Positions 4,066-51,135 of a DNA stretch of 64,000 bases are shown piece after piece. The notes under the pieces are model-generated. The model was given only the letters and a program-made list of their open reading frames with translations, did no database searches and was not told the DNA's origin. Source of the stretch: Minisyncoccota bacterium. Its GTDB lineage: Bacteria > Patescibacteriota > Microgenomatia > PFEM01 > JAFGMK01. A program made the translations under genes and the position numbers. Position 1 is the first letter of the stretch, and every line of letters begins with the position of its first letter. The stretch is taken from the NCBI GenBank assembly GCA_016927565.1, contig JAFGMK010000013.1:8796-72795 (forward strand), written 5' to 3'.

Positions 4066-4788
4066 CTATAGGGCTATTTTTGTTAAATTTCTCCGTTTTT
4101 TGTTGGGTTTGTCTTTTTCCAAATGGCCGTCGCGGAGAAAAATTATCCTTTTGGTGCACTCTGCAATCTCGTTTTCGTGGGTAATTACCACAATTGTTCG
4201 GCCTTTTCGGTTCAGCTGATCGAGAATTTTCATAATTTCTATTGCTTGTTTGCTGGCAATATTGCCGGTAGGTTCGTCAGCGAGAATTATGCTGGGATTC
4301 ATGGAAAGGGCCCTGGCAATCGCCACCCGTTGTTGCTGGCCGCCGGAAAGCTGGCCCGGGGTATGTTCGAGCCGGTTTTGCAAACCAACCATTGCCAAAT
4401 AACTCCGGGCTTTTCTGGCCCGGTCTTCTTTGGCAATCCCGCCGTACATCATCGGAATCATGACATTTTTTAAAGCGCTGGTTCGGGGAAGAAGATTGTA
4501 GAATTGGAAAACAAAGCCGATCTTTTGATTCCTGATTTCCGCCAGCTCGTCTTCATTCAGCTTTTCCACATTTTTGCCTTCCAGCAGATATTGGCCGGAA
4601 GTGGGCTTATCGAGGGCGCCGATAATATGCATCAGAGTTGATTTGCCCGAGCCTGAGGGGCCCATGATGGCGACAAATTCACCCCGATTAATCTTAAAAG
4701 AGACATTATCAAGGGCTCTGACTTGAATTTCTCCGGTTTGGTAAACTTTGGCGATGTTCTGGATTTTGATCAGGGGTTGAGGAGTCAT
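4066..4788 (-). CDS. ABC transporter ATP-binding protein (MacB/LolD-like)
   Basis: Walker [13 protein letters not shown] signature [15 protein letters not shown] and Walker B ILADEPTG. Confidence 0.9.
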
Positions 4789-4800
4789 AATTTTTCCCTC

Positions 4801-6033
4801 TTAGCGCATCATCATTCTCCCGCTGCCCCCGCCAGCGGCGGGGCCAAACGGCAAGACGCCATTGCTCCTGTTTTGAGCGGATTGATTGGGGACGGAAATT
4901 GTACCGGTAATTACCACTTCGCCTTCACTCAGACCGGAAATAATTTCGGTTTCGATGTCGCTGGAAATGCCGACCTCAACAGTCTGGTTTGTCTTCTGAC
5001 CGTCTTTTAAAATTACCACTGCTGCGGTTTCTCCTTGATAATTGATAGCGGTTGAAGGAACGATTAAAATATCGCTTTTTGTTTGGACAATGATACTGGC
5101 GGTTGCCGCCATGTTGGGTAATATTTGGCCGGTGCTGGTATCGAATTGAATGATGACCGGATAATTAGTGACATTGCTGGTGATTGTTCCCACCCGGTCG
5201 ACACTGACAACTTTGCCGGTAAAAGTTTTGCCGCTGACTGAGTCAAGAGTGATAGTGGTTTTTTGCCCGGGTTTAATTTGAGAAACATCAATTTCCGAAA
5301 CATTAAAAGTGGCGATTGGCAGGCCGCCGGTACTGATTGTGGCTACTCTTTGATTTGCCCGGGCGCCGCTGGCGGTTTCGCTGGCGCCGATATTCATTCC
5401 TTCGGCAATAGTAACGCTTTTGACGATCCCGGCAACGGGAGAGGTAATGACCGGAGCGGTGGTTTTATAAGCCAGAGCTGTTGAGTTTAATTTGGCCTCG
5501 GCATTTTTAATAGCGTCGTAAGCGTTATCGTGGGCGACTTCGGCCCGGGTGCGTTGTTCTTTCATTTCCAGGGTTTCATCGCTGTCATGGCCTTTGATTT
5601 CATCATAAACAACTTCGAGCGAAGCCCTGGCCGAGCGATAGTTATTATTAGCCGAGTTAAGCGAGTTTTGAGCGCTAAGATAATTGGAATAGGCCGAAGC
5701 GTAATTCTGTTTACCCTGAACGTCAAGATTAATTTCAACTAACTTTTGACCGGCGGAAACTTCATCGCCGTCACTGACATAAACCCGGCTGACGGTGCCG
5801 CTGGCTTGAGTAGTGATGTTTTCAATGTTTGAGGAAATGATTTTACCGGAAGCCGTAATCGAAGAAACAATCGTTCCGCGTTTTGCCGTTGCGGTTTGAT
5901 TGATTATCTGGGGCTTGTCATTTTTTGACCTCTGTCGGAAAAAAATAACTCCGGCAAGAACGACAATAATGGCCAGAAAAATCCGGGTCTTTGACTTGAA
6001 ATTTTTTTTGAGTGGATTAAGAATCTTTTTCAT
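4801..6033 (-). CDS. efflux periplasmic adaptor subunit (HlyD/MacA family)
   Basis: N-terminal TM, a coiled-coil-rich middle and a beta-barrel-like C-terminus. First gene of the ABC efflux operon. Confidence 0.75.
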   Translation of the reverse strand: MKKILNPLKKNFKSKTRIFLAIIVVLAGVIFFRQRSKNDKPQIINQTATAKRGTIVSSITASGKIISSNIENITTQASGTVSRVYVSDGDEVSAGQKLVEINLDVQGKQNYASAYSNYLSAQNSLNSANNNYRSARASLEVVYDEIKGHDSDETLEMKEQRTRAEVAHDNAYDAIKNAEAKLNSTALAYKTTAPVITSPVAGIVKSVTIAEGMNIGASETASGARANQRVATISTGGLPIATFNVSEIDVSQIKPGQKTTITLDSVSGKTFTGKVVSVDRVGTITSNVTNYPVIIQFDTSTGQILPNMAATASIIVQTKSDILIVPSTAINYQGETAAVVILKDGQKTNQTVEVGISSDIETEIISGLSEGEVVITGTISVPNQSAQNRSNGVLPFGPAAGGGSGRMMMR

Positions 6034-6182
6034 AATTGATATTCTATAAAAGAAAGTTTACAAAAACAAACTGAGAAAAAGCTGAAATATCGCCCGGTAA
6101 AAAGATAAACGATAATCTGATCAAACTGTTCCCGCCGGGAAAGCAATCACCAATATAAAATGATAAAATTTCCCAGACCGCC

Positions 6183-6215
6183 TGAATACTGGTTGGAGGC
6201 GGCTTTTTTGGATAA
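6183..6215 (+). terminator. Rho-independent terminator-like hairpin plus T-run
   Basis: ccgcct...aggcgg stem followed by cttttttgg. Confidence 0.4.
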
Positions 6216-6790
6216 TAAATGTCAGTTTGGTGGTTGATTTTCCTGAAGCAAGAATAGTTTTAGCTGAGAGGAGGGGAATGAGGCGGCTTGTCCATGACAA
6301 TCGAGCTGAGATGGTCGTTTTGATTACTTTAAAAGACTTGGCCTGGAGACATCGGCAATGGTGCCTTATTGTGTTTTTCTGGGCGGAAGCTTTGTCCGAG
6401 TCGAAGGAGACAGGGCTTAGCGATCTTGACGACACTTTTTGTGTTAAAAAGCCTTTTAAACATTCCCGTTTCTTTTTTAAATAGTCAGCCTAAAGGGAGC
6501 GGAAAAGAACCAGAGTCATATTTATGCGGCCAGAGCTCTAGGTTGGCAGGCCCTCCTTGTTGACAAAAGTCTAGAAAAATTATGCTTAATAGAATAAAAT
6601 AATTCTGAGTATGGTAAATTCAGAACTTGAGTATAATCTGGCTGGTGGTTTACTCCTTACAATTCGAGAAGGAGATTTCCGTCGGTTACAAGAAGGTTTA
6701 ATTTAGGCGGGCTTTAACTATGGTTGTCTTCTTCCTTTTCGAGCCTTAACAGAGGGAGGGGTTGAGAAATTAAGAAATTTTCCTTTACAG

Positions 6791-7339
6791 GTGGTTCACT
6801 TTGAGGAGGCATGGAATCCAACAAGTCAAGATAATTTGGGAAGAGCGGTTTTGGCGGGTCTAATTGGTTACTGGAGAAGGTTTCATGGAGACAAAACTGA
6901 ACCTCCAATTCTTCAGGACTCCTTTTTTCCTAGTAAGGCTACCTGTCAGGGGCTTTTTAGAGAAATTGCTGAAGCTTTTCCCGAGGCAAAATATATTTCT
7001 CACAAGATCCAGACAAAATTTCCTGCCGACAGGCTTTTAGTAGAAATAAACCCGGGGATAAATCTTTCAGATAAAGAAATTTTAGATATGACTGAGGAGA
7101 GGGGAATTGGTTTGGTATTTGACCCCAGTCATCTTCTTGCTTCTGAGAGGATGGTAAGTCGTCCCGGCTTGCCGACTAGACAGCCAAAAGGAGAATGGGA
7201 GAGGCAATTTCAGGTTTTTTCGTCAAGACTAGAGGTTGTTGATATTAATCCCGGCGATCAAAAAGGTGATGTTGGTGATTTATTGGCGGGAAGAGGAATG
7301 TTAAAAGAATTAGCTTCGGCGGCAGCAGATGCGGGGTAA
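6791..7339 (+). CDS. hypothetical ORF in a low-coding, higher-GC stretch; possibly not a real gene
   Basis: 182-aa ORF with no recognisable motifs. It sits in a 1.3 kb region otherwise lacking long ORFs. Confidence 0.2.
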   Translation: MVHFEEAWNPTSQDNLGRAVLAGLIGYWRRFHGDKTEPPILQDSFFPSKATCQGLFREIAEAFPEAKYISHKIQTKFPADRLLVEINPGINLSDKEILDMTEERGIGLVFDPSHLLASERMVSRPGLPTRQPKGEWERQFQVFSSRLEVVDINPGDQKGDVGDLLAGRGMLKELASAAADAG

Positions 7340-7644
7340 ATTTTTTAAGAGTAGAGATTCCTATCCCTCCGATCCGACAAATACCAGGTTCTCCTTTACA
7401 AGGGAAAGGTTTTGAGTTTTTAAGGGAAATTGGAAATGCTCTTAAGGCTTAGCTGGGTTTAAGTGAATACCCCTCCTATGAAAGCATCATGTCAAGGGTA
7501 ATAGATGAGTCTTTTTCAGGGTTTTGCCAACCAGCCTCCTATTGCTGGCCAGCTAAACTGCCATACTTTATCTTATCGCGGTCGGGTCAGGGGCGTTCTA
7601 TCCTTCCGGAACAGCTCCGTCAATTATTGTATGATTTCACCTTC

Positions 7645-7687
7645 AAGACAAGTTATAATGGGCATTAGTTTATGAAAAAAGACAGTC
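7645..7687 (+). repeat. copy 1 of a duplicated ~43-bp promoter/leader repeat (AAGAyAAGTTATAATGGGCATTAGTTTATGAAAAAA...)
   Basis: About 40/43 identical to 10097-10139. Contains a TATAAT -10 box 13 bp before an ATG. Here the ATG opens only a 32-codon ORF ahead of the CYTH gene. Confidence 0.7.
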
Positions 7688-7782
7688 ACCTTTTGGCAAA
7701 GAATCCCGCTTTAAAATTACACCAAGTTAATCAGGATTATTTTATAAAGGCGATTAAAAATACTAATTAGGAGACACAGAGA

Positions 7783-8322
7783 ATGGACAAAGACTATTTC
7801 GAGGACGAGGTAAAGGTTCTGGATGTTTCGCCAGAACATCTAAAGAGGGTCTTTGCTAAAATCAAGGCTAAAAAGGTCTTTGATGACAAAAGACTATTTA
7901 CCTCCTTTGATTATCCCAATTTAAAACTTACAAAAAATGGTAAAGGAGTTAGGCTAACAGAAGAAGGAAAATTAAAACTAAGCTTCACTACCAAATTATC
8001 AACCAAATCGAAAGAGACAATTAAGCTTTTTGTTAGTCGGAAAAAAGAAGCGGTTGATTTTTTAGATAGACTAGGCCTAAAGCCGATTGCTGAATGCCCC
8101 TCACATCGAATATCTTGGGAATGGAAGGGGGTAGACTTTGACCTTGATCAATTTCCCCAAATTCCACCTTTTTTGGAAATTGATCCGGGTGATTCGGGGA
8201 TTGCTTTGAAAAAGATCCTAGAACTTCTTGATCTGGGGAATAGAGAAGTTGTTACTCTTAGTACTCGGGAGGTTTATACTAAATACGGCAAAGATTATTT
8301 AAAGCTGTTTGCTATTAAATAA
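7783..8322 (+). CDS. CYTH-domain protein (triphosphate tunnel metalloenzyme / class IV adenylyl-cyclase-like)
   Basis: N-terminal EVKVLDV acidic strand, later RLTEEGKLKLSFTTK and LEID segments, and length about 180 aa, typical of CYTH. Confidence 0.45.
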   Translation: MDKDYFEDEVKVLDVSPEHLKRVFAKIKAKKVFDDKRLFTSFDYPNLKLTKNGKGVRLTEEGKLKLSFTTKLSTKSKETIKLFVSRKKEAVDFLDRLGLKPIAECPSHRISWEWKGVDFDLDQFPQIPPFLEIDPGDSGIALKKILELLDLGNREVVTLSTREVYTKYGKDYLKLFAIK

Positions 8323-8356
8323 AGATTAAAATTGCTACTGTGATAAAATTTTCCTG

Positions 8357-8746
8357 ATGAGAGACAATAAACTTACGATAAAGATTAATAAACCTTCAGA
8401 TATAGTTTTTGCTTACTACACAAATCCGAAAAACACTCCTCTCTGGTGGGATGCGGTCACCGTTGAAGAAACAAGTGATTGGCCAATAAAAATTGGGACG
8501 ATATATAAAAGTAAAAGTAAAGAAAGTGGCAACTGGAGCGAATTTACGGTCACTGATCTTAAGGAAAACGAAGTCTTTGAACTGACCTCAAAAGACGGCA
8601 AATATCATGTCCGCTACACCCATAAGCCAATCGATAAAAATTCCATGGAGCTTGAGTATTATGAATGGGTTGACGAAGGAGAGCTGGAAGAGCCCTTTAC
8701 GATGGAAATCTTGAGTCTACTAAAAGCAGCTATAGAAAAACTTTAA
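8357..8746 (+). CDS. SRPBCC (Bet v1/AHSA1-like) small ligand-binding protein
   Basis: About 130 aa with the IVFAYYTNPKNTPLWW N-terminus typical of AHSA1/CalC-like SRPBCC proteins. Confidence 0.35.
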   Translation: MRDNKLTIKINKPSDIVFAYYTNPKNTPLWWDAVTVEETSDWPIKIGTIYKSKSKESGNWSEFTVTDLKENEVFELTSKDGKYHVRYTHKPIDKNSMELEYYEWVDEGELEEPFTMEILSLLKAAIEKL

Positions 8747-8755
8747 ATAAAAATA

Positions 8756-9735
8756 ATGAAACCTAACAAACACCCTTTCCAAAAGCGAATAAGTTTTAAG
8801 GGCCAGCTTTCAGTATTGCTAAAAGAAATAGTTAGTGACTATCACTTTGGTAGTTACTTGAGTCATAAGGTCATTGGGGTGGGATACGAAGACTTTAATG
8901 TTATTGTCAAGACAAGTAAAGGTAAGTATTTCTTCAAGTTTTTTGCCGACTTTAGAAGTGAGATTGATTGCCAGCGCTATGTTGAGATCATGTTGGCAGC
9001 GGTTACTGGGGGAGTAAGCCATCCGAAGTTATACGAGTCTATAACCAGGGTTACTTTCACAAAATCAAAACTGAGGATGGCCTGGTCAGGCTGGTGGCTC
9101 TTGAGTATATCGACGGCAAGAGTTTTTTTGATCTCAAACAAAAACCAACTGCCAAGGAGAGGGACTTTCTGGTCAGGCAGGCAGCTTTGATTAACGGTCT
9201 TCAGATTAGACCTAAACTTTTTTATGACTACTGGGCGGTAGTTAATTTCTTAAAAGAATATCAAGAAGTTAAAAAACATCTTGAAAAAAAGGATATAAAA
9301 CTAATTGATCCTCTGGCCGAAAAGTTCAAGCAGGTAGATGTCAAAAGTCTGCCTCGTTGTCTTGTCCATGGCGACATCATTGAAACTAATGTTATCCGTA
9401 GCCAAAAAGGAAGATTGTATATTTTTGATTTTTCTGTTGCCAATATCTATCCCCGAATTCAGGAACTGGCGGTTATGCTCTGTGATATTCTTTTTGTCCC
9501 GGAAAGAGGAAAGTTCCAGGCAATTTACCAAAGAACCCTTGATGTCTACCAAAAGGAGATCAAGCTTGAAAAAGCTGAGATTGAGGCGCTGCCTCTTCTT
9601 GTCCGGGCGGCTCATGCGATGCATATTATTGGTTCGGTAAAATATGCTCTTGAAGAGGGGGATTTTGAAGAAAATAAACATTGGATAAAGATGGGGAGGG
9701 AGGGTTTGGCTTTTACTAGAAAGTTTCGGGGATAA
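8756..9735 (+). pseudogene. aminoglycoside/small-molecule phosphotransferase (APH/ChoK fold) split by a single frameshift near 9040-9100
   Basis: Two overlapping ORFs in different frames (8756-9190 and 9094-9735). The first carries a nucleotide-binding loop region. The second carries the Brenner motif HGDIIETN and the IFDFS metal-binding Asp. Reading across gives ...KLYES / NQGYFHKIKTEDGLVRLVALEYIDG. Confidence 0.6.
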
Positions 9736-10096
9736 ATTTAACTGTTACAACATAAAGGGGACAGCTCTCTTTTAGGTAGGGTATTCGTAGAAACTTCATC
9801 CGGAATGCAAGATGGGACTCCACACAGGAGAGACATTCGTCCATGTTATAATTTCTTCATTATGTCATCATTCCAGGTGGGGACGGTCAGAGCGGGACTC
9901 CAACTTTAGCCTCAAACAATCAGTCAGAGCGAGAATCAACATTTCCAAAGAGTAGGGTGATTCCTTTTCAATTTGCGGTCAAAATGCCTCCGCCAAGGTA
10001 CTATCCGATGATTTTGAAAAGAGATAAGCTAGGGAGGATTGTAAAGGCAAAATTTCCTCCAGCGGCTTTTTAGCTCCTAAGGGCCAAAAAACTCTA

Positions 10097-10139
10097 AAGA
10101 TAAGTTATAATGGGCATTAGTTTATGAAAAAAACAATCA
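10097..10139 (+). repeat. copy 2 of the duplicated promoter/leader repeat; supplies the -10 box and the ATG of the methyltransferase gene
   Basis: Same sequence as 7645-7687. The ATG at 10124 begins the 272-aa ORF. Confidence 0.7.
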
Positions 10140-10942
10140 AAACTTGTTATCAAGATCGAGCCCAGGACGAATGGCGACGACTCATTAAGGATAATTTCCA
10201 TCGTTTGGAATTTAAGACAACCCTTCACTTTCTAAAAAAATATTTGCCTAAGGAAGGTCTTATTCTTGATGCTGGCGGGGGGCCAGGCCGCTACACGATA
10301 GAACTTGCCAAACAGGGCTATGAAGTTGTCTTGCTTGATTTAACTCCTAAGCTCTTGAGGATTGCCAAGAAAAAAATTAAAAAAGCAAAGGTGGAAGATA
10401 AGGTTACGGATATTGTTGAGGGTTCGATTGTTGATCTGTCAAAATTCCCAGATAATAGTTTTGAGGCCGTTCTTTGTCTTGGCGGACCCCTGTCTCATGT
10501 CGAAGGTGAAAAAAAGCGTCAGAAAGCGGTTTCTGAATTAATCAGAGTGGCTAAAAAAGGGGCGCCAATTTTTGTATCGGTCATGGGAAGGCTAGGGCTT
10601 CTGATCGAAACGCCAATGTATTGGCCTGATGAGATTAAGCCTCGAGAACACTTTCGTTCTCTTTGGCAAGCAGGTGATGATCAAGCTTGGCGATGGGAAT
10701 ACTATTGCCACTTCTTCTTACCGGAAGAGTTAAAAAAGCTTTTTGCCTCAACTGGGAAAACCGAAATCGTCGATTGTGTTGGTCTTGAAGGTCTGGCTCA
10801 TGCGAAAAGAAAGATTAGCCAGTTGGCTTCTGGTTCACCTCAAGCTTGGAGAAATTGGCAGGAGGCTCACCTGGAGCTTTGTACCCATCCGGCTGTATTT
10901 GCGACGAGCAATCATATGATGATAATTTTGAAAAAAAAGTAA
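10124..10942 (+). CDS. class I SAM-dependent methyltransferase
   Basis: Motif I ILDAGGGPGRYTIELA with an acidic residue after beta2 (VVLLDLT). Confidence 0.75.
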   Translation: MKKTIKTCYQDRAQDEWRRLIKDNFHRLEFKTTLHFLKKYLPKEGLILDAGGGPGRYTIELAKQGYEVVLLDLTPKLLRIAKKKIKKAKVEDKVTDIVEGSIVDLSKFPDNSFEAVLCLGGPLSHVEGEKKRQKAVSELIRVAKKGAPIFVSVMGRLGLLIETPMYWPDEIKPREHFRSLWQAGDDQAWRWEYYCHFFLPEELKKLFASTGKTEIVDCVGLEGLAHAKRKISQLASGSPQAWRNWQEAHLELCTHPAVFATSNHMMIILKKK

Positions 10943-10961
10943 ACAAGTTGTCTTATTAAAA

Positions 10962-11432
10962 ATGAAAGTTAAAACTTTTTTACAGTATAAACATCAGCAA
11001 CAAGCTTACAAGATTTTTAAGTCTTATCCGAATCTTTTTACTAAAGCGGAGTTGAAAATTTTAAGGGAGGATTTAAAAACCGGTGACAATAAAAGCCACT
11101 TTAAGTTTGTGGCGGTGGACAAGGAGCAAGTAGTCGGTTTCATTAGCTTAGCTACTTGTTACGCTACCGACTATAGTTGGCAGGTTAACTGGCTTGCTGT
11201 TCATCCTGATTTTCAGCGTCTAGGAGTCGGCAGGTTGCTAATAAACTTTCTATTCCAAAAGGCTAAAAAACTAGGGTTAAAAAGGCTTTTTGTTGAAACC
11301 TGTAGTTGTCAGGGTGAAAAGCCAGCTAGATTGTTTTATCAGAAGCATGGCTTTAAAAAGATTGCCAGGTTGCCAGACTTTTATGCTAGGAAACATTCGA
11401 AGGTGATTTATTTAAAAAATATTGTAGAGTAA
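10962..11432 (+). CDS. GNAT family N-acetyltransferase
   Basis: Motif A FQRLGVGRLLINFLFQKA; length 156 aa. Confidence 0.75.
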   Translation: MKVKTFLQYKHQQQAYKIFKSYPNLFTKAELKILREDLKTGDNKSHFKFVAVDKEQVVGFISLATCYATDYSWQVNWLAVHPDFQRLGVGRLLINFLFQKAKKLGLKRLFVETCSCQGEKPARLFYQKHGFKKIARLPDFYARKHSKVIYLKNIVE

Positions 11433-11433
11433 G

Positions 11434-12015
11434 ATGAAAATTAAAGAACCGGCTTCTAAACAACCAATTCCACCTCATGCTAAAAGAGTTTTTAAGGGTA
11501 AGATATTTGATGTTTACCACTGGGAACAAAAATTATTTGATGGTTCCACGGCTACTTTTGAGAAAATAAAAAGACAAGATACAGTTAATGTTTTCCCAGT
11601 TACAAAGGAGGGTAAAATTATTCTTAGCCAGCAGAGACAGCCCGGCGGAAAGGGTTTTATCGGTTGTTTGGGAGGTAGAATTGACAAGGGCGAAACTCCG
11701 CTTGAGACAGCCAAAAGAGAGCTTCTAGAAGAGGCTGGTTTAAAAGCCAAGACGTGGCTTCTTTGGGACGCAAGACATCTTTTAGGTAAAATTGATTGGG
11801 CAATTTATACTTTTGTGGCTAAGGATTTAAAAAAGGTCGGTAAAATTCAATCTGATGCTGGCGAGAAAATAAAATTGATTCAAGTTTCTTTTGAACAGTT
11901 TTTAAAAACTGTCACCAGAGATAATTACCGAGATATAGAGATTGCTTTGATGCTTCTTAAAGCTAAAGAAGATCCAAAGAAGCTTAGCAAGATAAAAGAA
12001 CTGTTATTGAAATAA
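11434..12015 (+). CDS. NUDIX hydrolase
   Basis: Perfect Nudix box GGRIDKGETPLETAKRELLEEAGL (GX5EX7REUXEEXGU). Confidence 0.85.
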   Translation: MKIKEPASKQPIPPHAKRVFKGKIFDVYHWEQKLFDGSTATFEKIKRQDTVNVFPVTKEGKIILSQQRQPGGKGFIGCLGGRIDKGETPLETAKRELLEEAGLKAKTWLLWDARHLLGKIDWAIYTFVAKDLKKVGKIQSDAGEKIKLIQVSFEQFLKTVTRDNYRDIEIALMLLKAKEDPKKLSKIKELLLK

Positions 12016-12030
12016 GTAGAATAGTAATAA

Positions 12031-13047
12031 ATGAAGATTAATATTGATAAGCCAAAGATCTCTGAGCTAGGTGTACTCTTAGACTTGTGGCGGGGTCAGT
12101 ATGATTACCATCATGGTCTTGATGCTGAGTATTATGTGGCTAATTCTCTGGTTCTTGATAAGAAGTTTAGAGTCTATCTTGAAAAAGCAATAAACAAAAA
12201 TGATCCTTTTATACTGGCCGCTTACGAGGGAGGCAAGCTTGTTGGTTTTATTACTTTTGAAATTTCCAAAGCCGACTACTTCGACACTAAAATTAAAAGG
12301 TACGGTGAGGTGATTGAGCTTTTTGTTGATAAGGCTTATCGAGGTAAAGGAATTGGCAAAAAGCTAATGCGAGCGACCGAGGATTTTTTCAAAAGCAAGT
12401 CAATTTCTTATATCAAACTCCAATGCTCAACCTTTAATAAAAAGGCGATTGGTTTTTACCAGCACCTGAGTTATATTAACCGCCAAGTTTTTATGTTTAA
12501 AAGAATCGTGTCTGAGATGACATCGGAATATGTTGTTGATTTATATATGGACTTAGAGGGCCAAGGAGTTAAGATTTGGTTAGATGGTGGTTGGGGAGTT
12601 GATGCCCTACTTGGTAAACAAACCCGACCTCACGAGGATGTTGATATTGTTATCCAAAAAAAGAATCTTGGCAAACTCCGGAAATTCTTGGAAGAGAGAG
12701 GATATCATGATGTAGAAAGACCAGACACTAAGCCCCACAACTTTGTTTTAGGCGATGATGAGGGCCATTTGTTTGATATCCACGTTATTGTTATTGATTC
12801 CAAAGGCGATGGGATTTATGGCCCGCCCGAAAAGGGTGAGAAGTATCCGGCTGACTCTTTAACTGGGAAGGGGACAATTAGTGGTCAAGCAGTAAGGTGT
12901 ATTTCAGCCAAGCGAATGGTCGAGTTTCATACTGGCTATGACCCCAGAGAAACTGATTATAAGGATGTTGCTGCTTTGTGCAAGAAGTTTGGGATAAAAT
13001 TACCTAAGGTGTATGTCCATTTTAAAAAGAAGCAGGAGAAAAGATGA
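12031..13047 (+). CDS. two-domain protein: N-terminal GNAT acetyltransferase fused to a C-terminal ANT(2'')/AadB-like nucleotidyltransferase
   Basis: N-terminal GNAT motif A YRGKGIGKKLM. The C-terminal IWLDGGWGVDALLGKQTRPHEDVDIV ... GQAVRCISAKRMVEF aligns by eye with AadB LWIGGGWAIDARLGRVTRKHDDIDL ... GRPVRCNSWEAII. Confidence 0.7.
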   Translation: MKINIDKPKISELGVLLDLWRGQYDYHHGLDAEYYVANSLVLDKKFRVYLEKAINKNDPFILAAYEGGKLVGFITFEISKADYFDTKIKRYGEVIELFVDKAYRGKGIGKKLMRATEDFFKSKSISYIKLQCSTFNKKAIGFYQHLSYINRQVFMFKRIVSEMTSEYVVDLYMDLEGQGVKIWLDGGWGVDALLGKQTRPHEDVDIVIQKKNLGKLRKFLEERGYHDVERPDTKPHNFVLGDDEGHLFDIHVIVIDSKGDGIYGPPEKGEKYPADSLTGKGTISGQAVRCISAKRMVEFHTGYDPRETDYKDVAALCKKFGIKLPKVYVHFKKKQEKR

Positions 13048-13877
13048 AGAAGGTTTTGATCCTTGGAGCTAATGGTTATTTAGGAGCGCGTCTTTATTAC
13101 GATCTTCGGGGAAATTTTAAGGCTTACGGAACTTATCACCGGGAGCAGTTTTGTAAGGATTTTATTCATTTGGACATTACCGTTCAGGATGAGCTTTCTG
13201 AGGTGTTTAGAAAATATAATCCTGATTTCATTGTTCATGCTGCTAATTATCCTAGTCCCAGGTATGCGGTAGGTAACGAAGAGGGGTATAAAAAGCTAAA
13301 TCTTACGGCGACTCGGCTTATAGTTAATACTGCTAATAAAATTGGTGCTAGGGTCGTTTTTATCTCTACATTAGCTCCTTCCATTCTAAAGAATATCTAT
13401 GGCCAGTTGAAGCTGGAATCTGAGGCTGTAGTTAAAAAGGTTGAGGCGGGCTATTTGGTTATTCGTCCTTGCCTGATCTTGGGTTTTAGCCCAAATACGA
13501 CTAATGGTCGGCCCTTCAATCGGATTCTGAAGCATCTTGATAATAAGACCACGGCTGAGTTTGATACCTCTTGGAAATTTCGGCCGACTTATGTTGGCCA
13601 TGTTTCTGAGGTAATAGGGACTTGCATTGAAAAGAACATTTTCAATAAAACCCTTTCTGTTTTTTGTGATTCATTGCAGACCCAATATTCAACTGCCCGG
13701 GACATTTTAAAACCCTTTGGAGTAGTGGTTAAGCCCATTGATAAGGGAGTTGATATTCCGATAGCTGAGGCGGATGAGGCAGAGCTTGAAAATTTGGGCT
13801 TGCCTACCATTAGCTATGAAGAGATGATAGCCAAAATCCATTGGGAGATTAAAAATAGAGGGGAGTTTGTATTATGA
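13044..13877 (+). CDS. NAD-dependent epimerase/dehydratase (SDR) family protein, RmlD-like
   Basis: Rossmann motif ILGANGYLGARL and a catalytic YxxxK (YGQLK). Overlaps the neighbouring genes by 4 bp at both ends. Confidence 0.65.
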   Translation: MKKVLILGANGYLGARLYYDLRGNFKAYGTYHREQFCKDFIHLDITVQDELSEVFRKYNPDFIVHAANYPSPRYAVGNEEGYKKLNLTATRLIVNTANKIGARVVFISTLAPSILKNIYGQLKLESEAVVKKVEAGYLVIRPCLILGFSPNTTNGRPFNRILKHLDNKTTAEFDTSWKFRPTYVGHVSEVIGTCIEKNIFNKTLSVFCDSLQTQYSTARDILKPFGVVVKPIDKGVDIPIAEADEAELENLGLPTISYEEMIAKIHWEIKNRGEFVL

Positions 13878-14506
13878 AATTATTTTTGGCAGCCGAAGCA
13901 AAAAATCCAGCTAGTATTAGAAAGCTTAGAAAGTTTATTGGTGGTAGTTTTAAGGGAAAAAAGATAGCCTATGTTCCCACTGCCTCAAATGGGGAATATT
14001 ATGGTGCCTGGAAAGGCGGAGAATCAATCAAGAAAGCAATGTCTTTGGGTGCTGACTTAAAGATTGTTCAGCTTGAGGACGCCTGTTACCGAGATGTTAT
14101 TAAGCCAATTAGAGAGGCTAATATTTTGTGGATGGCAGGTGGAATGTCTGGCTATCTTCTTTACTGGATAAGGCGAGTAAAGTTGGATAAGGCGCTTCCG
14201 GGTATTCTTGAGAAGGGAACAATCTACGTGGGATCAAGTGCGGGGAGCATGATTTGTGCCAAAACTCAATACTCATCCGAGTGGTACCTGGGCGAGCCAG
14301 AGCCAGGCGCGAGCCTGGTTTCTGGATTAGGCTTGATTGATTTTGAAATCTATCCTCATTACGAAGAAAAGCTGTTGCCTAAGATTAAGAAGCTTTGGAA
14401 AAGTGGTGAGTTATACCTTTTGAAGAACGGTGAAGTAATTACTGTTGTTAATGAAAAGATTGAGGTTTTAGGGAAGAGGAGAGTGATAAGAAAAGAGGAG
14501 AAATGA
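13874..14506 (+). CDS. peptidase S51 (PepE/cyanophycinase-like)
   Basis: ILWMAGGMSGY and the nucleophile elbow VGSSAGSM. Confidence 0.6.
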   Translation: MKLFLAAEAKNPASIRKLRKFIGGSFKGKKIAYVPTASNGEYYGAWKGGESIKKAMSLGADLKIVQLEDACYRDVIKPIREANILWMAGGMSGYLLYWIRRVKLDKALPGILEKGTIYVGSSAGSMICAKTQYSSEWYLGEPEPGASLVSGLGLIDFEIYPHYEEKLLPKIKKLWKSGELYLLKNGEVITVVNEKIEVLGKRRVIRKEEK

Positions 14507-14666
14507 TAACTACTAAAGCAATTAAAATAATCAGGGATTTTGTAAGAGAAAAGGGGACGGTTCTCAAATAGGCACGGAATTAGTGATTTTTAATGATTTT
14601 TATTTTCGGGGTGGATCTCTATCTGTAGCTTGGGATAAGCGGCGACTATGGTAAAATAGCCTCACT

Positions 14667-15728
14667 ATGGCATCATTACAGGTGGGGATAGTTGGGCTCC
14701 CGAATGCCGGGAAATCTACTCTTTTTAATGCCTTGCTTAAAAAGCAGGTAGCGGATACAACCAACTATCCCTTTTGTACGATTGAGCCGAACAAGGGGAT
14801 AGTAGAAGTGCCGGACGGGCGGTTGCCGGTATTGGCGGAAATTGTCAGAACCCAAAAAATTATTCCGGCGGTAGTGGAATTTATTGATATCGCCGGTCTG
14901 GTTAGAGGAGCTCATCAAGGTGAGGGTTTGGGCAACCAATTTCTGGCCCAAATTCGGGAAGTGGCGGTTATTTCTCAAGTAGTCCGCCTTTTCAAAAATC
15001 CGGATGTAGCCCATGTTGAAAAGAGGTTGAATCCGAAGGCTGATGTGGAAATTGTCAATAGTGAACTTATTTTGGCTGATTTACAGACTCTAATGAAGCA
15101 GAAAGAGCCGCGGATTTCAACCGATAAGGAAGCTCTTTTCCGCTGGCAGGCAATTCAAAAATTAAAAAGGCATCTTGATCAAGGGCTGTTGGCAAGAGAG
15201 GTGTCTTTAACACCGGCCGAGAGGGAATTAACTAAGGATTTGTGTCTATTAACAGCTAAGCCAATGATATATGTGGCTAACGTCGGTGAAGATAATTTGG
15301 CCGGGGCAGTAGTTGATTTTGATTATCAACCAGTAATTAAACTCTCGGCAAAATTGGAGGAGTCTCTGATTTTACTGCCTAAAAAAGAGCAACTTGACTA
15401 TTTAGCCGAGTACGGGCTGTCAGAGGCGGGGTTGTCGAGGTTAATCAAGACTGCCTATGAAACTTTGGGGCTGATTTCTTTCTTAACCGCCGGGGAAAAA
15501 GAAGTTAGGGCATGGACAATCAGGAAAGGAATGCGGGCTCAAGAGGCAGCAGGGGTGATTCACACTGATTTCGCCCAAAAATTTATCAAGGCGGAAGTGA
15601 TTTCTTTTGAAGATTTTGTTCAGGATGGTGGTTGGGCTAATTGCCGATCTTTGGGCAAGGTTCGGCTTGAAGGACGGGATTATCAAATCAAAGATGGGGA
15701 AGTGGTGGATTTTAAGATTGGAGCTTAA
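14667..15728 (+). CDS. ychF: ribosome-binding ATPase YchF
   Basis: G1 GIVGLPNAGKSTLFNAL, a C-terminal TGS domain and length about 353 aa. Confidence 0.9.
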   Translation: MASLQVGIVGLPNAGKSTLFNALLKKQVADTTNYPFCTIEPNKGIVEVPDGRLPVLAEIVRTQKIIPAVVEFIDIAGLVRGAHQGEGLGNQFLAQIREVAVISQVVRLFKNPDVAHVEKRLNPKADVEIVNSELILADLQTLMKQKEPRISTDKEALFRWQAIQKLKRHLDQGLLAREVSLTPAERELTKDLCLLTAKPMIYVANVGEDNLAGAVVDFDYQPVIKLSAKLEESLILLPKKEQLDYLAEYGLSEAGLSRLIKTAYETLGLISFLTAGEKEVRAWTIRKGMRAQEAAGVIHTDFAQKFIKAEVISFEDFVQDGGWANCRSLGKVRLEGRDYQIKDGEVVDFKIGA

Positions 15729-15771
15729 AAATTTTTTTGATTTGAGACTGTTGAATAAAAATTTTTTCCCC

Positions 15772-15846
15772 GTCATTCTGAACAAAGCGAAAGATTCCCC
15801 TCGGCAGAGATTATTACCCCCCCCGCCTTTGGCGGGTCAGAATGAC
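15772..15846. promoter_or_regulatory. nested inverted repeats (gtcattctg ... cagaatgac enclosing cccgcc-ttt-ggcggg) in the ychF-rpsF spacer
   Basis: Seen directly in the sequence. An outer 9-bp inverted repeat is separated by 57 nt, with an inner 6-bp tight hairpin. Confidence 0.35.
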
Positions 15847-15927
15847 AATGGATCAAGACGTTATTCAGCCGTCTCTTTTGATTTAAGGCTTGTTTCTTAA
15901 TTATACCTTTGCTATACTCTTTTTCAT

Positions 15928-16209
15928 ATGCGCGACTACGAGCTGGTTTTAATTACCAAAACCAAAACAGAAGCTGAAAACGAGGCGGTTCTCAAGTCAG
16001 TGAAAGAACTGATTTTGTCTTTTAAAGGAAAGGTTAATAAAACTAGTCCTTGGGGCAAGCGTGATTTGGTTTATCCGATTAAACAACAACGTTCCGGTTA
16101 TTATTTTCTTCTTCAGATAAAGCTTTCTCCGGAAAGTATAAAGGAATTTGAAAAAAAATTAAAACTTAACGAAAATGTTATCCGCTATTTATTAATCACC
16201 CGAGGATAG
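15928..16209 (+). CDS. rpsF: 30S ribosomal protein S6
   Basis: MRDYELVLI... N-terminus, about 93 aa, immediately upstream of ssb and rpsR. Confidence 0.85.
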   Translation: MRDYELVLITKTKTEAENEAVLKSVKELILSFKGKVNKTSPWGKRDLVYPIKQQRSGYYFLLQIKLSPESIKEFEKKLKLNENVIRYLLITRG

Positions 16210-16219
16210 GAGGTTTAAG

Positions 16220-16789
16220 ATGGCATCCCGATCTCTGAATAAAGTTTGTTTGATTGGCAATTTAACTCGCGATCCGGAATTGCGTTACACTCCCCAGGGA
16301 ACGGCGGTTTGTACGCTTGGTTTGGCAACTAACCGTTCTTGGGCAACCGAGGGCGGAGAAAGAAAAGAAGAAACCGAATTCCACCGTTTAGTAGCCTGGA
16401 ATAAATTAGCCGAAATTTGTTCTCAATTTCTGGCTAAGGGCCGCCGGATTTATGCGGAAGGAAGATTGCAGACCAGACAATGGACGGCTCAGGATGGTTC
16501 GCCCCGGCAGACAACTGAAATAATCCTTTCTGAGATGATTATTCTCGACAGTCGGAGACAGGAAGATTTTGCTGGTAGTTCGGTTGAGACTGAACCGGTT
16601 GGCGATGCTGCCGATTCATCCGGAACTGGTTCAGCTAAGACTGATGATCAGTCCCTGCCGGCTGACAATGACAGCAATGACGATAAAACCAAAAAAGCCG
16701 CTTTGACCCATCCTAAGAAGGCGGTTTCAAAAAAAGCTGAAAAGAAGGACGAAGCTGCCGAGATCAGCGAGGACGAAATTCCTTTTTAA
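16220..16789 (+). CDS. ssb: single-stranded DNA-binding protein
   Basis: OB-fold N-terminus (GNLTRDPELRYTPQG ... FHRLVAWNKLAE), an acidic tail and terminal DEIPF. Confidence 0.9.
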   Translation: MASRSLNKVCLIGNLTRDPELRYTPQGTAVCTLGLATNRSWATEGGERKEETEFHRLVAWNKLAEICSQFLAKGRRIYAEGRLQTRQWTAQDGSPRQTTEIILSEMIILDSRRQEDFAGSSVETEPVGDAADSSGTGSAKTDDQSLPADNDSNDDKTKKAALTHPKKAVSKKAEKKDEAAEISEDEIPF

Positions 16790-16806
16790 AAAAAAGTTTT
16801 TTAGTT

Positions 16807-17070
16807 ATGCCTCGAAAGCCAAGCAAAGCCAAGAGTTCAAAAAGTAAGATTCCTTTGCCGGCCGAACAGGAATGCTTTTTTTGCAAAAATAAAACCAGGC
16901 TCGATTTCAAAGAAATGGAAACACTGGCGCGATTTTTATCCGACCGGGGCAAAATCCTGCCTCGGTCAAGAAGCGGAGTCTGTGCCAAACATCAACGGGG
17001 ATTGGTTCTTCAGATTAAGCGGGCTCGATATTTGAGCCTTCTTCCCTATCTGGCTAAGGTTAAGGGGTAG
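16807..17070 (+). CDS. rpsR: 30S ribosomal protein S18
   Basis: CFFCKNK ... LARFLSDRGKILPRSRSGVCAKHQR motif. Confidence 0.85.
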   Translation: MPRKPSKAKSSKSKIPLPAEQECFFCKNKTRLDFKEMETLARFLSDRGKILPRSRSGVCAKHQRGLVLQIKRARYLSLLPYLAKVKG

Positions 17071-17110
17071 TCAAAAAGCGTATTCGGGTGGTAAGATAGG
17101 TTAGCTTTTC

Positions 17111-17920
17111 ATGGAAAATAAAAAGGGATTACTCGAGAATACTTCTTATCAATTAATTGTCGATTTATTGGGCGAGCCGGTTTCTTTAGTTAAAAAGGGT
17201 GACATGGTTTCCCGTGATGAGTTATTAATAAAGATTAAAAAGCCGGTTGATAACGAGATTGATTTGGCTGCCGAGTTGGGAATCAAGCCGCATCGGGCAA
17301 TGAGGTTTTTGAATAAGGAATTGGGCGAATCAGTTGTGCGGGAGGAGATAATTGCTCAAAGGGGCTCTTTTTTGTCAAGCAGGAAAGTTCTGTCGCCGGC
17401 AACAGGAGAATTGGCATCTCTGGATGAGACCGGTATCTTGGTAGTCCGCACCTTTATTAAAAAGGAAATCCGGGCGCCGATTGCCGGCCGGGTGAGCCTG
17501 CTTTCAGCTAAGAAACTGGGGATTACCTTTCCCTGTTTGAAACTGAAAGGAACTTGGGGAACAGGGGTCAGAATTGGCGGAAATTTGGCTCTAATTGAAG
17601 CTGATTCAGCTAAAGAAAGCGCTTTTCAAGTCCGAGGTGATTTTTCAGATAAGGTTTTAATCATCCAGGGACAACTTTCAAGAACTTTCTGGTTTAAAGC
17701 GGCCAGTCTCGGACTTTTGGGTTTAGTTTGTCCTTCGGCCGGAGAAAGCGTTTCCAAAAAATTCTTGCTGTCTCGAAATCAAATTCATCCTTCCTTGCTG
17801 GTAATTGGTCAGGAAAAATTTGACAAAAAAATTTGGGAAGATCTGAAAAAATATGAGGGTAGGGAAGTTTTAATTAATCCGGCTAAGGCAGAATTAATTA
17901 TTCCATTATCAGCTCGATAG
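17111..17920 (+). CDS. hypothetical protein
   Basis: 269-aa ORF with no recognised motif. Co-directional with the neighbouring genes. Confidence 0.5.
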   Translation: MENKKGLLENTSYQLIVDLLGEPVSLVKKGDMVSRDELLIKIKKPVDNEIDLAAELGIKPHRAMRFLNKELGESVVREEIIAQRGSFLSSRKVLSPATGELASLDETGILVVRTFIKKEIRAPIAGRVSLLSAKKLGITFPCLKLKGTWGTGVRIGGNLALIEADSAKESAFQVRGDFSDKVLIIQGQLSRTFWFKAASLGLLGLVCPSAGESVSKKFLLSRNQIHPSLLVIGQEKFDKKIWEDLKKYEGREVLINPAKAELIIPLSAR

Positions 17921-17928
17921 CTAATTTT

Positions 17929-19179
17929 ATGAGGCTAACTTTAAAACAAATTAGACGGGCGGCATTTATTTTGGCTTTTTTGTTTCTTGCCGGCTGGACC
18001 GGTTTTTGGCTGGGGCAAAAATCAGCCGGTCTTTTTTTTCCGGGAAGCCAATCGGGTTCTAACCTGAGTTTGTTGAAGAAAGGAAACGAAGTAAATCTTG
18101 ATCTTTTTTGGGATGTCTGGAACCGCCTGGAAAATTCTTTTATTGATCAAAGTAAACTTGACTCGGAAAAGATGATTTATGGGGCGATTGAAGGAATGGT
18201 TGCTTCGCTGGGTGATCCTTATACATCTTTTTTACCTCCGGAAGAAAACCAGCGGAGTCTTCAAGATTTAGCCGGCTCCTTCGGAGGAGTAGGGATTCAG
18301 CTTGGGTTTCTGGAGTCCGGCTTGGCAGTGATTGCTCCTTTAAGTCAAACTCCGGCTGAAGAAGCCGGAATTAAGGCAGGTGATCTGATTCTGAAAATTG
18401 ATGATCAGGAAACTCTGGCAATGAGTTTGCCTCAGGCGGTAAATCTGATCAGAGGCGAGGAAGGAACCCAAGTCAGCCTGATTCTTAAACGCGAATCAAT
18501 CAAGGAGCCTTTTGAAGTTAAAGTTACCCGGGGAGAGATTTTAGTCAAGAGCGTTGAGGTGGATTTCCTGAATGACTGGTGCGGCCAGTCAAAGTGTCCG
18601 CTAGTGACCCATTTGAAATTAATTCGTTTCGGTGATCGGACTAACGAAGAATGGTCTGAGGCGGTGGCATTGATCAAAAAAAAGTGCCCGGTCGAAAGTT
18701 CGGATTGCCGGGGAATAATCCTGGACCTTCGGAATAATCCCGGAGGATATTTGGCCAGTTCAGTTTTTATTGCCTCGGAATTTTTACCTTCGGGGACAGT
18801 AGCTCAGGAAGAAGACTCGAGTGGCCGCCGCCAACCTTTTTTAGTCAATCGCCAGGGTAGCCTGCTGAAACATTCTTTAGTAGTTCTGGTTGATCAGGGG
18901 AGCGCTTCGGCTTCGGAAATTGTTGCCGGAGCTCTTAAAGAAAACCAGCGGGCAGCAGTAATTGGAGAAGCTACTTTCGGCAAGGGTTCAATTCAGGATC
19001 TTCAGGATTTGAGAGGTGGTGGCGGGCTTTATATCACAACTAACCGGTGGTTGTTACCCGGCGGCCAGTCGGTTGAAAATCAGGGCCTTGAGCCTGATTA
19101 TTTGGTGGAAAATGATCCGGATCGGCCTGAAGAAGATAATCAATTGCAAAAAGCCATTGAAATTTTAAGCAGCTTGTAA
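17929..19179 (+). CDS. ctpA: carboxyl-terminal processing protease (S41) with PDZ domain
   Basis: PDZ domain (AGIKAGDLILKIDD) and S41 motifs GIILDLRNNPGGYL and LVDQGSASASEIVAGAL. Confidence 0.85.
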   Translation: MRLTLKQIRRAAFILAFLFLAGWTGFWLGQKSAGLFFPGSQSGSNLSLLKKGNEVNLDLFWDVWNRLENSFIDQSKLDSEKMIYGAIEGMVASLGDPYTSFLPPEENQRSLQDLAGSFGGVGIQLGFLESGLAVIAPLSQTPAEEAGIKAGDLILKIDDQETLAMSLPQAVNLIRGEEGTQVSLILKRESIKEPFEVKVTRGEILVKSVEVDFLNDWCGQSKCPLVTHLKLIRFGDRTNEEWSEAVALIKKKCPVESSDCRGIILDLRNNPGGYLASSVFIASEFLPSGTVAQEEDSSGRRQPFLVNRQGSLLKHSLVVLVDQGSASASEIVAGALKENQRAAVIGEATFGKGSIQDLQDLRGGGGLYITTNRWLLPGGQSVENQGLEPDYLVENDPDRPEEDNQLQKAIEILSSL

Positions 19180-19209
19180 TAGTATTAAAAGGTTAAAGGA
19201 AAGAGGTAA

Positions 19210-23342: not shown

Positions 23343-23372
23343 ATACTTTAATAATTTAAATTATTAAAGTAT
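23343..23372. promoter_or_regulatory. perfect 30-bp palindrome ATACTTTAATAATTTAAATTATTAAAGTAT upstream of the TrpR-like gene, followed by (GGTT)4
   Basis: Seen directly. It ends 18 nt upstream of the start codon and overlaps the promoter/RBS region of the 22879-23325 gene. Confidence 0.5.
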
Positions 23373-30361: not shown

Positions 30362-30395
30362 TCTTGATATCATGATTCATATCATGGTATCAAGA
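30362..30395. promoter_or_regulatory. 34-bp near-palindrome TCTTGATATCATGAT-TCAT-ATCATGGTATCAAGA upstream of the YerC-like gene; candidate operator
   Basis: 15-bp inverted arms with one mismatch and a 4-bp spacer. It matches the site at 51306-51339 at 31 of 34 positions. Confidence 0.6.
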
Positions 30396-42375: not shown

Positions 42376-42391
42376 ATTAATGTCGCACAAT
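42376..42391. repeat. direct repeat copy A (ATTAATGTCGCACAAT)
   Basis: 15/16 identical to 43004-43019, lying 628 bp apart upstream of the Xer-like recombinase gene. Confidence 0.6.

Positions 42392-49140: not shown

Positions 49141-51135
<1,995 letters not shown>

Follow-up and report, generated by a model that had tools for sequence, protein, structure and literature searches.

A short putative promoter and translation start repeated at the heads of two neighbouring accessory operons in a Pacebacteria genome

A short direct repeat marks the heads of two adjacent accessory gene blocks in an uncultured Pacebacteria genome. The repeat probably comprises the core promoter of a methyltransferase operon together with its translation start, and a second copy of it heads a CYTH-SRPBCC-APH block; the copy at the methyltransferase gene would be the native one, and the other a derivative. 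The window analysed is the whole stretch of 64,000 nucleotides in which the repeat resides. Copy 1 (7645–7688) and copy 2 (10097–10139) lie on the forward strand in direct orientation, 2,452 bp (~2.45 kb) apart. The 36-nt cores of the two (7645–7680 and 10097–10132) are identical at 35/36 positions, the sole mismatch being C7649/T10101, and include an exact 31-mer, AAGTTATAATGGGCATTAGTTTATGAAAAAA, found at 7650–7680 and at 10102–10132. The presence of the repeat at these two sites had been noted in the original prediction, which set the identity at about 40/43. Ungapped identity over 43 nt is lower (36/43); the match lengthens to 41/44, reaching 7688 in copy 1 and 10139 in copy 2, with one 1-nt gap after the A-run (AAAAAA-G-ACAGTCA versus AAAAAA-ACAATCA). 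Counted from the two ATGs (7672 and 10124), it runs from about -27 to +9, or to +17 with the gapped extension.

A search of the window allowing up to 3 mismatches returned 2 copies, against 0 expected from 100 shuffles. The pair is the longest dispersed repeat of the 64-kb window, the runner-up measuring 18 nt. Exact matches to the 22-nt core are absent from the genome_contigs, metagenome_contigs and viral_contigs collections, and blastn-short against 1.88 Mb of related loci gave chance-level matches and no further copy. Because the 22-nt core is missing from the three public collections and the related loci, the repeat is probably not a genome-wide consensus; with an exact 31-nt core present in two copies only, and in none of the collections, chance or a common consensus can be ruled out for the sequence analysed. 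MITE- or REP-like dispersed repeats typically have many copies per genome; the count here is 2 in the 64 kb of the window and none in the three collections. A motif common in front of many unrelated genes had been named at the outset as the finding that would make a duplication superfluous; the check was run, and no third copy emerged in the window or the collections. The same result leaves without support a reused cassette promoter, the other option then offered, if by this a portable promoter with many copies is meant.

The repeat ends abruptly on both sides. In MAFFT alignments of 260 nt around each copy similarity stops with the repeat, local alignment past the exact core detected no downstream similarity relative to shuffles, and upstream, similarity is lost some 9 nt ahead of the -10 box. 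A longer duplication was rejected, and since the flanks on both sides are unrelated, the duplicated piece must be short. The 3' flanks run ...AAAAAAACAATC on the copy-2 side and ...AAAAAAGACAGTC on the copy-1 side. An RNA element at the repeat or in the spacers was rejected as well: no Rfam match was found between 6000 and 10300 (E≤1), and folding of both spacers and both copies revealed no significant structure (z-scores about 0; for the repeat, dG of -2 to -3.5 kcal/mol, z about -0.3 to -0.6). Copy 1 is not the 3' end of the upstream gene, as gene X, a forward-strand pseudogene (6611–7452), ends at 7452. This gene has an in-frame stop at 6704–6706 and a frameshift near 7290–7340; tblastn recovers it in two frames with an internal stop, and its homologs measure 280–295 aa. 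A 59-aa ORF ending inside copy 1 (7489–7668) has no real homologs (one match, E=3e-4, in 1.8 billion proteins), and the stop-to-stop segments of 7440–7790 and 9700–10130, considered as possible gene remnants in the spacers, have no Pfam match.

Both copies carry a perfect TATAAT hexamer (7654–7659 and 10106–10111, forward strand). The boxes had been recognized correctly, but the distance to the ATG is 12 nt in both, rather than the 13 bp initially reported. The copy 2 box is the sole TATAAT in the window located 4–44 nt before the ATG of an ORF of at least 80 aa. Of the hallmarks of sigma-70-type promoters the -10 box is present, whereas a conserved -35 element at 16–18 nt and a TGn extended -10 are both absent, and neither copy is reported by the promoter scan; the hexamer is preceded by GT, not TG, and the bases upstream differ between copies. 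The 12-nt spacer GGGCATTAGTTT between box and ATG has no GGAGG-like Shine-Dalgarno motif. Similar layouts recur in the window, where TAnnnT boxes (at least 5/6 match to TATAAT) are found 5–14 nt before the start in 7/30 operon-first genes, against a background of 2.7%. As about a quarter of the operon-first genes have such boxes, the near-leaderless design is, judged from the window, the norm for this genome. The 12 nt of the repeat are at the long end, the spacers of the other near-leaderless genes in the window measuring 5–10 nt. mRNAs with no leader or a short one, transcribed from a -10 box close before the start codon, are well described in Actinobacteria, Deinococcus and archaea. The genes analyzed here resemble them in the position of the TAnnnT box, the lack of a Shine-Dalgarno motif and the recurrence of the layout across the window, but differ from strictly leaderless ones in having a predicted 5' UTR of ~5 nt, not 0; for this lineage the near-leaderless mode is a prediction. 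Through the repeat, the two adjacent accessory operons probably share one near-leaderless promoter, the activity of which we infer.

Identity covers exactly the region from the -10 box to the start codon, and a small palindrome with 4-bp arms, TAAT-GGGC-ATTA (TAATGGGCATTA), lies between box and ATG. Both features would suit a regulator binding the -10/+1 region of the two operons, selection or gene conversion keeping the sites identical. We consider such a shared operator very unlikely. Selection on a binding site fails to explain 31 consecutive identical bases which include Lys codons, arms of 4 bp are short, and neither operon is adjoined by a regulator gene; moreover, an operator would account for the maintenance of the repeat, not for its origin.

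Copy 2 opens, as originally stated, the gene of a class I SAM methyltransferase (MTase; 10124–10942, forward strand), assigned from Pfam, the L001 gene table and its conserved N-terminus. The gene heads a tightly packed run, MTase-GNAT-NUDIX-GNAT/ANT(2'')-epimerase-S51 peptidase, which extends to 14506. In 12 homologs, the residues aligned with the N-terminal MKKTIK are MKKKTIK/MKKKTVK. This conservation identifies the ATG of copy 2 as the true start of the MTase, so that the repeat ends, on its 3' side, within conserved MTase codons. Homologs are 72–51% identical, and in the closest ones a -10 box resides 6–9 nt before the ATG (TAAAAT in L004, L006 and L094, TATTAT in L005); the near-leaderless reading first proposed thus fits both the genome and the MTase family.

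Since the repeat continues past the ATG into codons conserved among MTases, copy 2 is most likely the original and copy 1 its derivative. The direction of copying is read from ~8 nt past ATGAAAAAA, of which 6/7 match after the 1-nt gap, ATGAAAAAA itself being a common gene start across this genome. Past this start copy 1 continues as GACAGTCA, the resident copy 2 as ACAATCA. The copy 1 bases resemble AAGACAGTT (K-T-V), found at the N-terminus of the L006 homolog, as much as they resemble the resident sequence, and copy 1 might then be the last remnant of a second, paralogous MTase gene with its promoter, the body of which was deleted in genome decay, leaving its first codons joined to unrelated DNA. 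The locus is decaying, as denoted by the stop and frameshift of gene X and by a frameshift in the APH gene, and two methyltransferase-type genes reside in neighbouring units in L004. We deem a paralog remnant unlikely, however, as MTase similarity does not extend past about 8 nt after the A-run (local alignment of the sequences downstream of the exact core scores 16, below the shuffle mean of 18.9), and two separate, very close breakpoints around a perfect 31-nt core would be needed.

Copy 1 opens, in agreement with the original prediction, a 32-codon ORF (MKKDSHLLAKNPALKLHQVNQDYFIKAIKNTN; 7672–7770, forward strand) ahead of the CYTH gene. The ORF has no Pfam match and no similarity to the MTase 5' region past the repeat. 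It stops at a TAG that overlaps AGGAG, the Shine-Dalgarno sequence which the CYTH-domain gene (7783–8322, 179 aa, PF01928) has of its own, 8 nt before the ATG. A SRPBCC/polyketide-cyclase-like gene (8357–8746, 129 aa, PF10604) and an APH-fold kinase gene (8756–9735) follow on the same strand, and gaps between island genes measure 1–34 nt. Of the three island genes initially listed, CYTH and SRPBCC stand, but the APH-like gene is not intact, being split by one frameshift into ORFs 8756–9190 and 9094–9735. The C-terminal piece is matched by Pfam APH at profile positions 76–229, and weakly by residues 134–272 of homoserine kinase 2ppq. A 360-nt non-coding spacer (9736–10096), with no Pfam, Rfam or fold signal, separates the APH remnant from copy 2.

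A conserved three-gene cassette of CYTH, SRPBCC and APH was rejected, as the CYTH homologs (81% and 70% identical) and the MTase homologs examined are surrounded by unrelated genes and are in no case adjacent to each other. No close relative was found that could supply an empty site, and so support the insert first proposed for the 2.45-kb block: the best homologs are 72% (MTase), 81% (CYTH) and 54% (YchF) identical, and a YchF scan of GTDB genomes reached at best the same 54%. Synteny was rejected too, since L092 and L006 match in partial gene order only; gene X and YchF are 0.9 kb apart in L092, but this is a distant relative (YchF 48% identical). Arrays of single genes with repeated junctions were seen around the MTase family in L004 and L006.

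Islands and prophages of tyrosine recombinases are bracketed by attL/attR direct repeats. The present repeats are similarly tens of bp long (31–36 nt), have sharp edges and surround a discrete accessory block, and could be the junctions left by a small, non-autonomous element that integrated as a circle of 2,452 bp: its single copy of the repeat would have recombined with the one in the MTase promoter, and the element might be excised again. Small integrase-less units with repeated junctions do occur around the MTase family, as seen in L004, where the closest MTase homolog resides within a tandem array of single-gene units. Each unit has a repeated ~240-nt element in front, the first copy of which begins at the 3' end of a tRNA-Gln gene; a search of the window with an nhmmer profile of this element was negative, the best hit (E=0.096) lying elsewhere in the window. 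The low GC of the block (38.9%, in the lowest 4% of 2.4-kb windows) would also suit an acquired element, but the adjoining MTase island is equally low (39.8%). Integrase, transposase and resolvase are absent from the block and its neighbours, and the sole recombinase in the 64 kb, according to Pfam scans of the main ORFs (at least 90 aa), is a XerC/D-like gene (43221–44177) 33 kb away. In contrast to att sites, the repeat lies in a promoter/5' coding region, not at a tRNA 3' end, and has no paired inverted binding arms apart from the 4-bp palindrome. CYTH, SRPBCC and APH are found together nowhere else in the loci examined. A dif/Xer-like site was rejected, as TTATGAAAAAA looks by eye like one Xer arm, but a second arm at the right spacing was not seen. 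Altogether, we regard att-like junctions as quite unlikely.

It is highly improbable that an integrase-less 2,452-bp cassette moves in and out of the MTase promoter via a 31–44 bp site doubling as near-leaderless promoter and start codon. Were this true, each integrated unit would bring or regenerate its own expression signal, CPR bacteria would have a promoter-embedded cassette system distinct from integrons, and the system might relate to the L004 and L006 arrays. Unlike integron cassettes, the repeat has no imperfect palindromic attC of 55–140 nt with RYYYAAC/GTTRRRY cores, and IntI was not found. Unlike transposons and ISs, the block has neither terminal inverted repeats at its ends nor a transposase, and the duplication measures 36–44 bp, versus 2–14 bp.

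Both copies and all four flanks are reproduced exactly in an independent k=31 Logan assembly of SRR13394437, as is the APH frameshift split. The assembly is split into three contigs, the breaks falling exactly on the two repeat copies; contig L002 measures 2,481 nt, 29 nt being identical at both ends, so that a circle would suit the k=31 graph equally well. Since this graph cannot prove order, the linear arrangement A-R-B-R-C rests on the deposited MAG contig. The sequence is carried by one MAG contig and one sequencing run only, and a 2.45-kb segment from another locus, strain or replicon could have been threaded in through the shared 31-mer. Such an artefact is highly improbable: the 93.5-kb contig runs through the repeat, which Illumina reads exceed by far in length, as do the large k values that metagenome assemblers usually employ, and tetranucleotide composition of the block is ordinary, 22% of windows being at least as distant. 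A misplaced block would still have the repeat at both ends, and the duplication would therefore stand.

In the preferred reading, the reuse of the MTase promoter, the module would consist of the -10 box, a ~5-nt leader without ribosome-binding site, the ATG and the first 3–6 codons. A second module of 36–44 bp, taken from an MTase 5' end, would have come to lie 2,452 bp upstream of native copy 2, in front of the CYTH-SRPBCC-APH(pseudogene) block. RNA polymerase would initiate a few nucleotides ahead of each ATG, and the two near-leaderless transcripts would have the same 5' end. On the copy 1 transcript, ribosomes would read the accidental 32-codon ORF, stop at the TAG overlapping the CYTH AGGAG, and may continue to CYTH and SRPBCC by translational coupling; copy 2 would express the run from MTase to S51 peptidase. 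To judge from the sharp edges and the 31/31 identity, the copying event was probably recent and short. Either the block was inserted into the MTase 5' region with duplication of about 44 bp, or a short promoter patch was copied in front of a block that was there before.

Promoter reuse in prokaryotes has been described as putative mobile promoters (PMP; Matus-Garcia, Nijveen & van Passel 2012, PMC3575422). PMPs are similar upstream sequences found, mostly in pairs, before non-homologous genes of one genome; they have been proposed to rewire transcription, and are not tied to a known mobile element (PMC3575422). The repeat described here also fronts non-homologous genes, the downstream coding sequences not being paralogous. 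PMP families were delimited as sequences between -150 and -50 with an identity of 80% or more across 50 nt or more, repeats entering coding sequence being excluded (PMC3575422). In contrast, identity here is 97% over 36 nt, or 41/44 gapped, and the repeat, at about -27 to +17, includes -10 box and start codon. The Cit+ event of the E. coli long-term experiment is, as summarized in PMC3575422, an example of promoter capture by local duplication. The two cases are alike in that a nearby promoter was placed before other genes by a local rearrangement of few kb; they differ in that such captures duplicate kilobases, putting the gene behind the promoter, whereas here ~44 bp were duplicated, and no coding duplication is left.

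The repeat probably reflects genuine promoter reuse, of a rather ordinary kind. Its value is illustrative, not fundamental, since the current view of promoter evolution is unchanged. If the reading is right, this would be a clean, minimal example of promoter reuse in a reduced CPR genome: ~40 bp would suffice as a full expression signal (-10 box, very short leader, start codon), and a single copying event could supply it to a neighbouring block of genes. From the direct repeats, a simple deletion polymorphism would be expected in the population, the CYTH block being present or absent. The data would also lend sequence-level support to the idea of common near-leaderless transcription in this Pacebacteria lineage, which bears on the calling of gene starts in MAGs.

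A short direct repeat occurs twice in the window, at 7645-7688 (+; copy 1) and 10097-10139 (+; copy 2). The segment 7645-7680 (AAGACAAGTTATAATGGGCATTAGTTTATGAAAAAA) matches 10097-10132 save for one base, C7649 versus T10101, and a 31-nt core is identical (7650-7680 = 10102-10132). The original prediction of two copies is confirmed and is statistically unambiguous: 35/36 positions match, 0/100 dinucleotide-preserving shuffles matched the repeat, and only these two copies were found on both strands of the 64-kb window with up to 3 mismatches allowed. The high identity claimed also stands, the figure of about 40/43 does not, as ungapped identity is 36/43 over those 43 nt and reaches 41/44 only with a single 1-nt gap after the A-run (GACAGTCA versus -ACAATCA). 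In a k-mer census the pair is the sole long dispersed repeat of the window; the runner-up dispersed exact match measures 18 nt, and remaining long matches are local palindromes. The upstream flanks of the copies show no likeness in a MAFFT alignment, and the downstream 100 nt of each give a local alignment score of 16, below the shuffle mean of 18.9. A 22-nt core had no match in GTDB genomes, JGI metagenomes or IMG/VR, and none across 1.88 Mb of fetched related loci; the check for a common genome-wide consensus thus yielded no third copy in the window, the collections or the loci.

Both copies carry a perfect TATAAT, read from the sequence at 7654-7659 and 10106-10111, followed by a spacer of 12 nt (GGGCATTAGTTT), not 13 bp as first stated, and then by ATGAAAAAA. 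The spacer lacks a Shine-Dalgarno motif, and no conserved -35 or TGn extension is present at either copy. As predicted, copy 2 opens a methyltransferase (MTase) gene and copy 1 a 32-codon ORF (7672-7770). The MTase (class I SAM methyltransferase by Pfam, 272 aa) leads a compact run of genes that ends at 14506, in the order MTase, GNAT, NUDIX, GNAT-ANT(2'') fusion (12031-13047), epimerase, S51 peptidase. The TAG stop of the 32-codon ORF overlaps the AGGAG of the CYTH gene (7783-8322), which is followed by SRPBCC (8357-8746) and by an APH-fold kinase gene split by one frameshift into ORFs of 144 aa (8756-9190, +) and 213 aa (9094-9735, +), overlapping at 9094-9190. The 2,452-bp block from copy 1 to copy 2 closes, after the APH gene, with a non-coding stretch of 360 nt.

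Proteins of the locus are recorded in an NCBI MAG, Candidatus Pacebacteria bacterium, on a 93.5-kb contig, and in the Logan assembly of run SRR13394437. Three Logan contigs match the window exactly over their whole length, at 4330-7679 (L003), 7651-10131 (L002) and 10103-20942 (L001). Their breaks fall exactly at copy 1 and copy 2, and the ends of L002 have 29 nt in common; the four repeat flanks are therefore confirmed. With A, B and C denoting DNA left of, between and right of the copies, and R the repeat, the k=31 graph fits A-R-B-R-C and A-R-C plus a B-R circle alike, and the linear order comes from the MAG contig. Since the independent Logan contig has the same split, the APH frameshift is probably real decay, not a sequencing error.

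The ATG of copy 2 is the real MTase start, because in 12 homologs the N-terminus aligned with its MKKTIK reads MKKKTIK/MKKKTVK. A -10-like box lies very close to the ATG in the nearest MTase homologs (TAAAAT, 9 nt, in locus L004; TATTAT, 6 nt, in L005; TAAAAT, 6 nt in L006 and 9 nt in L094). Within the window, TAnnnT boxes with at least 5/6 match to TATAAT end 5-14 nt before the start in 7/30 operon-first genes, versus 2.7% of random positions, and looser boxes, such as TGGTAAGAT or TAGTAT, are found at several more. The near-leaderless design thus appears to be the norm of the genome, which suggests that leaderless transcripts are widespread in the Pacebacteria genome studied. Close-box starts include 4801(-), 6611, 14667, 15928, 17111, 21146(-), 39577(-), 44387(-), 52308 and 63358; such operon-first genes, of which there are many, have the -10-like box 5-13 nt from the start codon, often as TGnTAnAAT, and lack a Shine-Dalgarno. 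GGAGG sites are ordinary at internal genes of the window, CYTH included. The repeat fits as a particularly good instance of the near-leaderless design, and is sensibly read, from its sequence, as a duplicated putative near-leaderless promoter plus start codon.

Most likely copy 2 is the native copy and copy 1 a derivative, as judged from few bases. The repeat extends past the start codon and covers codons that members of the MTase family conserve, the -10/ATG layout is common to MTase homologs of unrelated genomes, and CYTH homologs are preceded by a close -10 box of their own (TGTTAAAAT in L007, at 7 nt from the ATG). The 32-codon ORF is absent before CYTH homologs. Copy 1 could also be what was left when a second MTase gene was deleted.

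The MTase family (51-60% identity in JGI metagenome loci L093-L172) is found both in CPR bacteria and in contigs that are apparently archaeal (DPANN-like). In many of these homologs, more distant and apparently archaeal ones among them, the place of the -10 box is taken by a TATA-like one (TTTATAAAAA, AAATATAAAC) some 25 nt ahead of the ATG; it seems that the gene moves across domains as a stand-alone, leaderless unit. The nearest MTase homolog (72%) resides in a tandem array (L004, 8245-12064) after a tRNA-Gln gene (8245-8318). The array consists of four consecutive single-gene units, each preceded by a repeated element of about 240 nt (8312-8553, 9661-9902, 10869-11109, 11752-11893+), the first beginning at the tRNA 3' end (GCAGCCA). 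Within the stretch seen there is neither an Rfam match nor an integrase; the arrangement resembles serial integration, or an array of cassettes, at a tRNA. In L006 a 42-80-nt element (AAACCAACACCGGGTGTTGAATAGGTAGAAACCTCGGGATTT...) occurs at 6096-6137 and 6955-6996, upstream of SNase and PNPOx genes, and at 8580-8621, between MTase and MFP genes.

The neighbourhoods of the MTase homologs (at 72%, 70% and 65% identity, with a further 80 JGI loci at 51-60%) are unrelated, as are those of the CYTH homologs (81% and 70%), which argues against a travelling three-gene cassette; the original interpretation is partly supported. In the loci examined, MTase and CYTH homologs never adjoin each other or SRPBCC/APH homologs, and CYTH-SRPBCC-APH is therefore a lineage-specific assemblage. 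In L006, whose response regulator is 75% identical to that of the window, the MTase is present and the CYTH block missing, a distant comparison that is suggestive only. GC content is 38.9% in the block, 39.8% in the MTase run and 42.9% in the window; 7453-14666 is a lower-GC run (~39-40%) of small-molecule-modifying genes, CYTH through S51 peptidase.

The neighbour preceding copy 1, gene X, is a pseudogene by tblastn (6611-7452, +): a stop codon interrupts it in frame at 6704-6706, and its frame shifts near 7290-7340. Only a fragment of it is annotated, as a 182-aa ORF (6791-7339), whose homologs measure 280-295 aa and form a conserved family without assignment, save that one member has PF01261. 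YchF, the gene beyond the MTase run, has a best identity of 54% among GTDB genomes, where no close relative was found. In L092, a distant relative, a gene X homolog (66% identical) and YchF are separated by a mere 0.9 kb, which holds a TatD gene; because the distance is 7.2 kb in the window, this interval may be an accessory island, a comparison suggestive only.

The block could have entered the 5' region of the MTase gene and duplicated its target there, or a promoter patch could have been copied, for instance by template switching. Neither in the block nor near it is there an integrase, transposase or resolvase, no inverted repeats mark its ends, and no attC-like or other fold is present in the repeat. 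The only recombinase among Pfam-scanned ORFs of the window is a XerC/D-like gene (43221-44177). Att-type recombination at a pre-existing shared site is a further possible origin, but neither a recombinase nor binding arms go with the site; a cassette site that is embedded in a promoter and has no integrase is very improbable. Membership of integrons or IS/transposons was rejected, as their defining features were tested for and not found.

The stretch 41932-43220 (1.3 kb), which abuts the upstream side of the XerC/D-like tyrosine recombinase gene, contains no Pfam-matching ORF of at least 90 aa (one 92-aa ORF is on the minus strand) and has no Rfam match (best E=0.7). A 32-nt palindrome (CTTGATAYCATGATTC plus its reverse complement) occurs at 30363-30394, ~90-115 nt upstream of a TrpR-like gene (29983-30276, -), and at 51307-51338, ~200 nt upstream of gyrB (49141-51102, -). 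One is perfect, and the other is mismatched at 2 positions of one arm (~0.03 half-site matches expected by chance); it could be an operator or terminator. A second TrpR-like gene (22879-23325, -) has a perfect 30-nt AT-rich palindrome (ATACTTTAATAATTTAAATTATTAAAGTAT, 23343-23372) immediately upstream.

MITEs and REPs are present in many copies per genome; the repeat has two copies in 64 kb. The nearest described concept is promoter reuse by 'putative mobile promoters' (PMC3575422), defined as at least 50 nt long and positioned at -150 to -50, repeats reaching coding sequence being filtered out. The idea is shared, but the repeat differs in length and position, and extends into coding sequence, a case which that filter removes. 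The data fit best with a recent duplication of a short piece, the MTase promoter/start module. A module of about 44 bp would have been duplicated and would now head the CYTH block, creating two adjacent accessory operons with identical near-leaderless 5' ends. The direct repeats predict that the block is precisely lost now and then.
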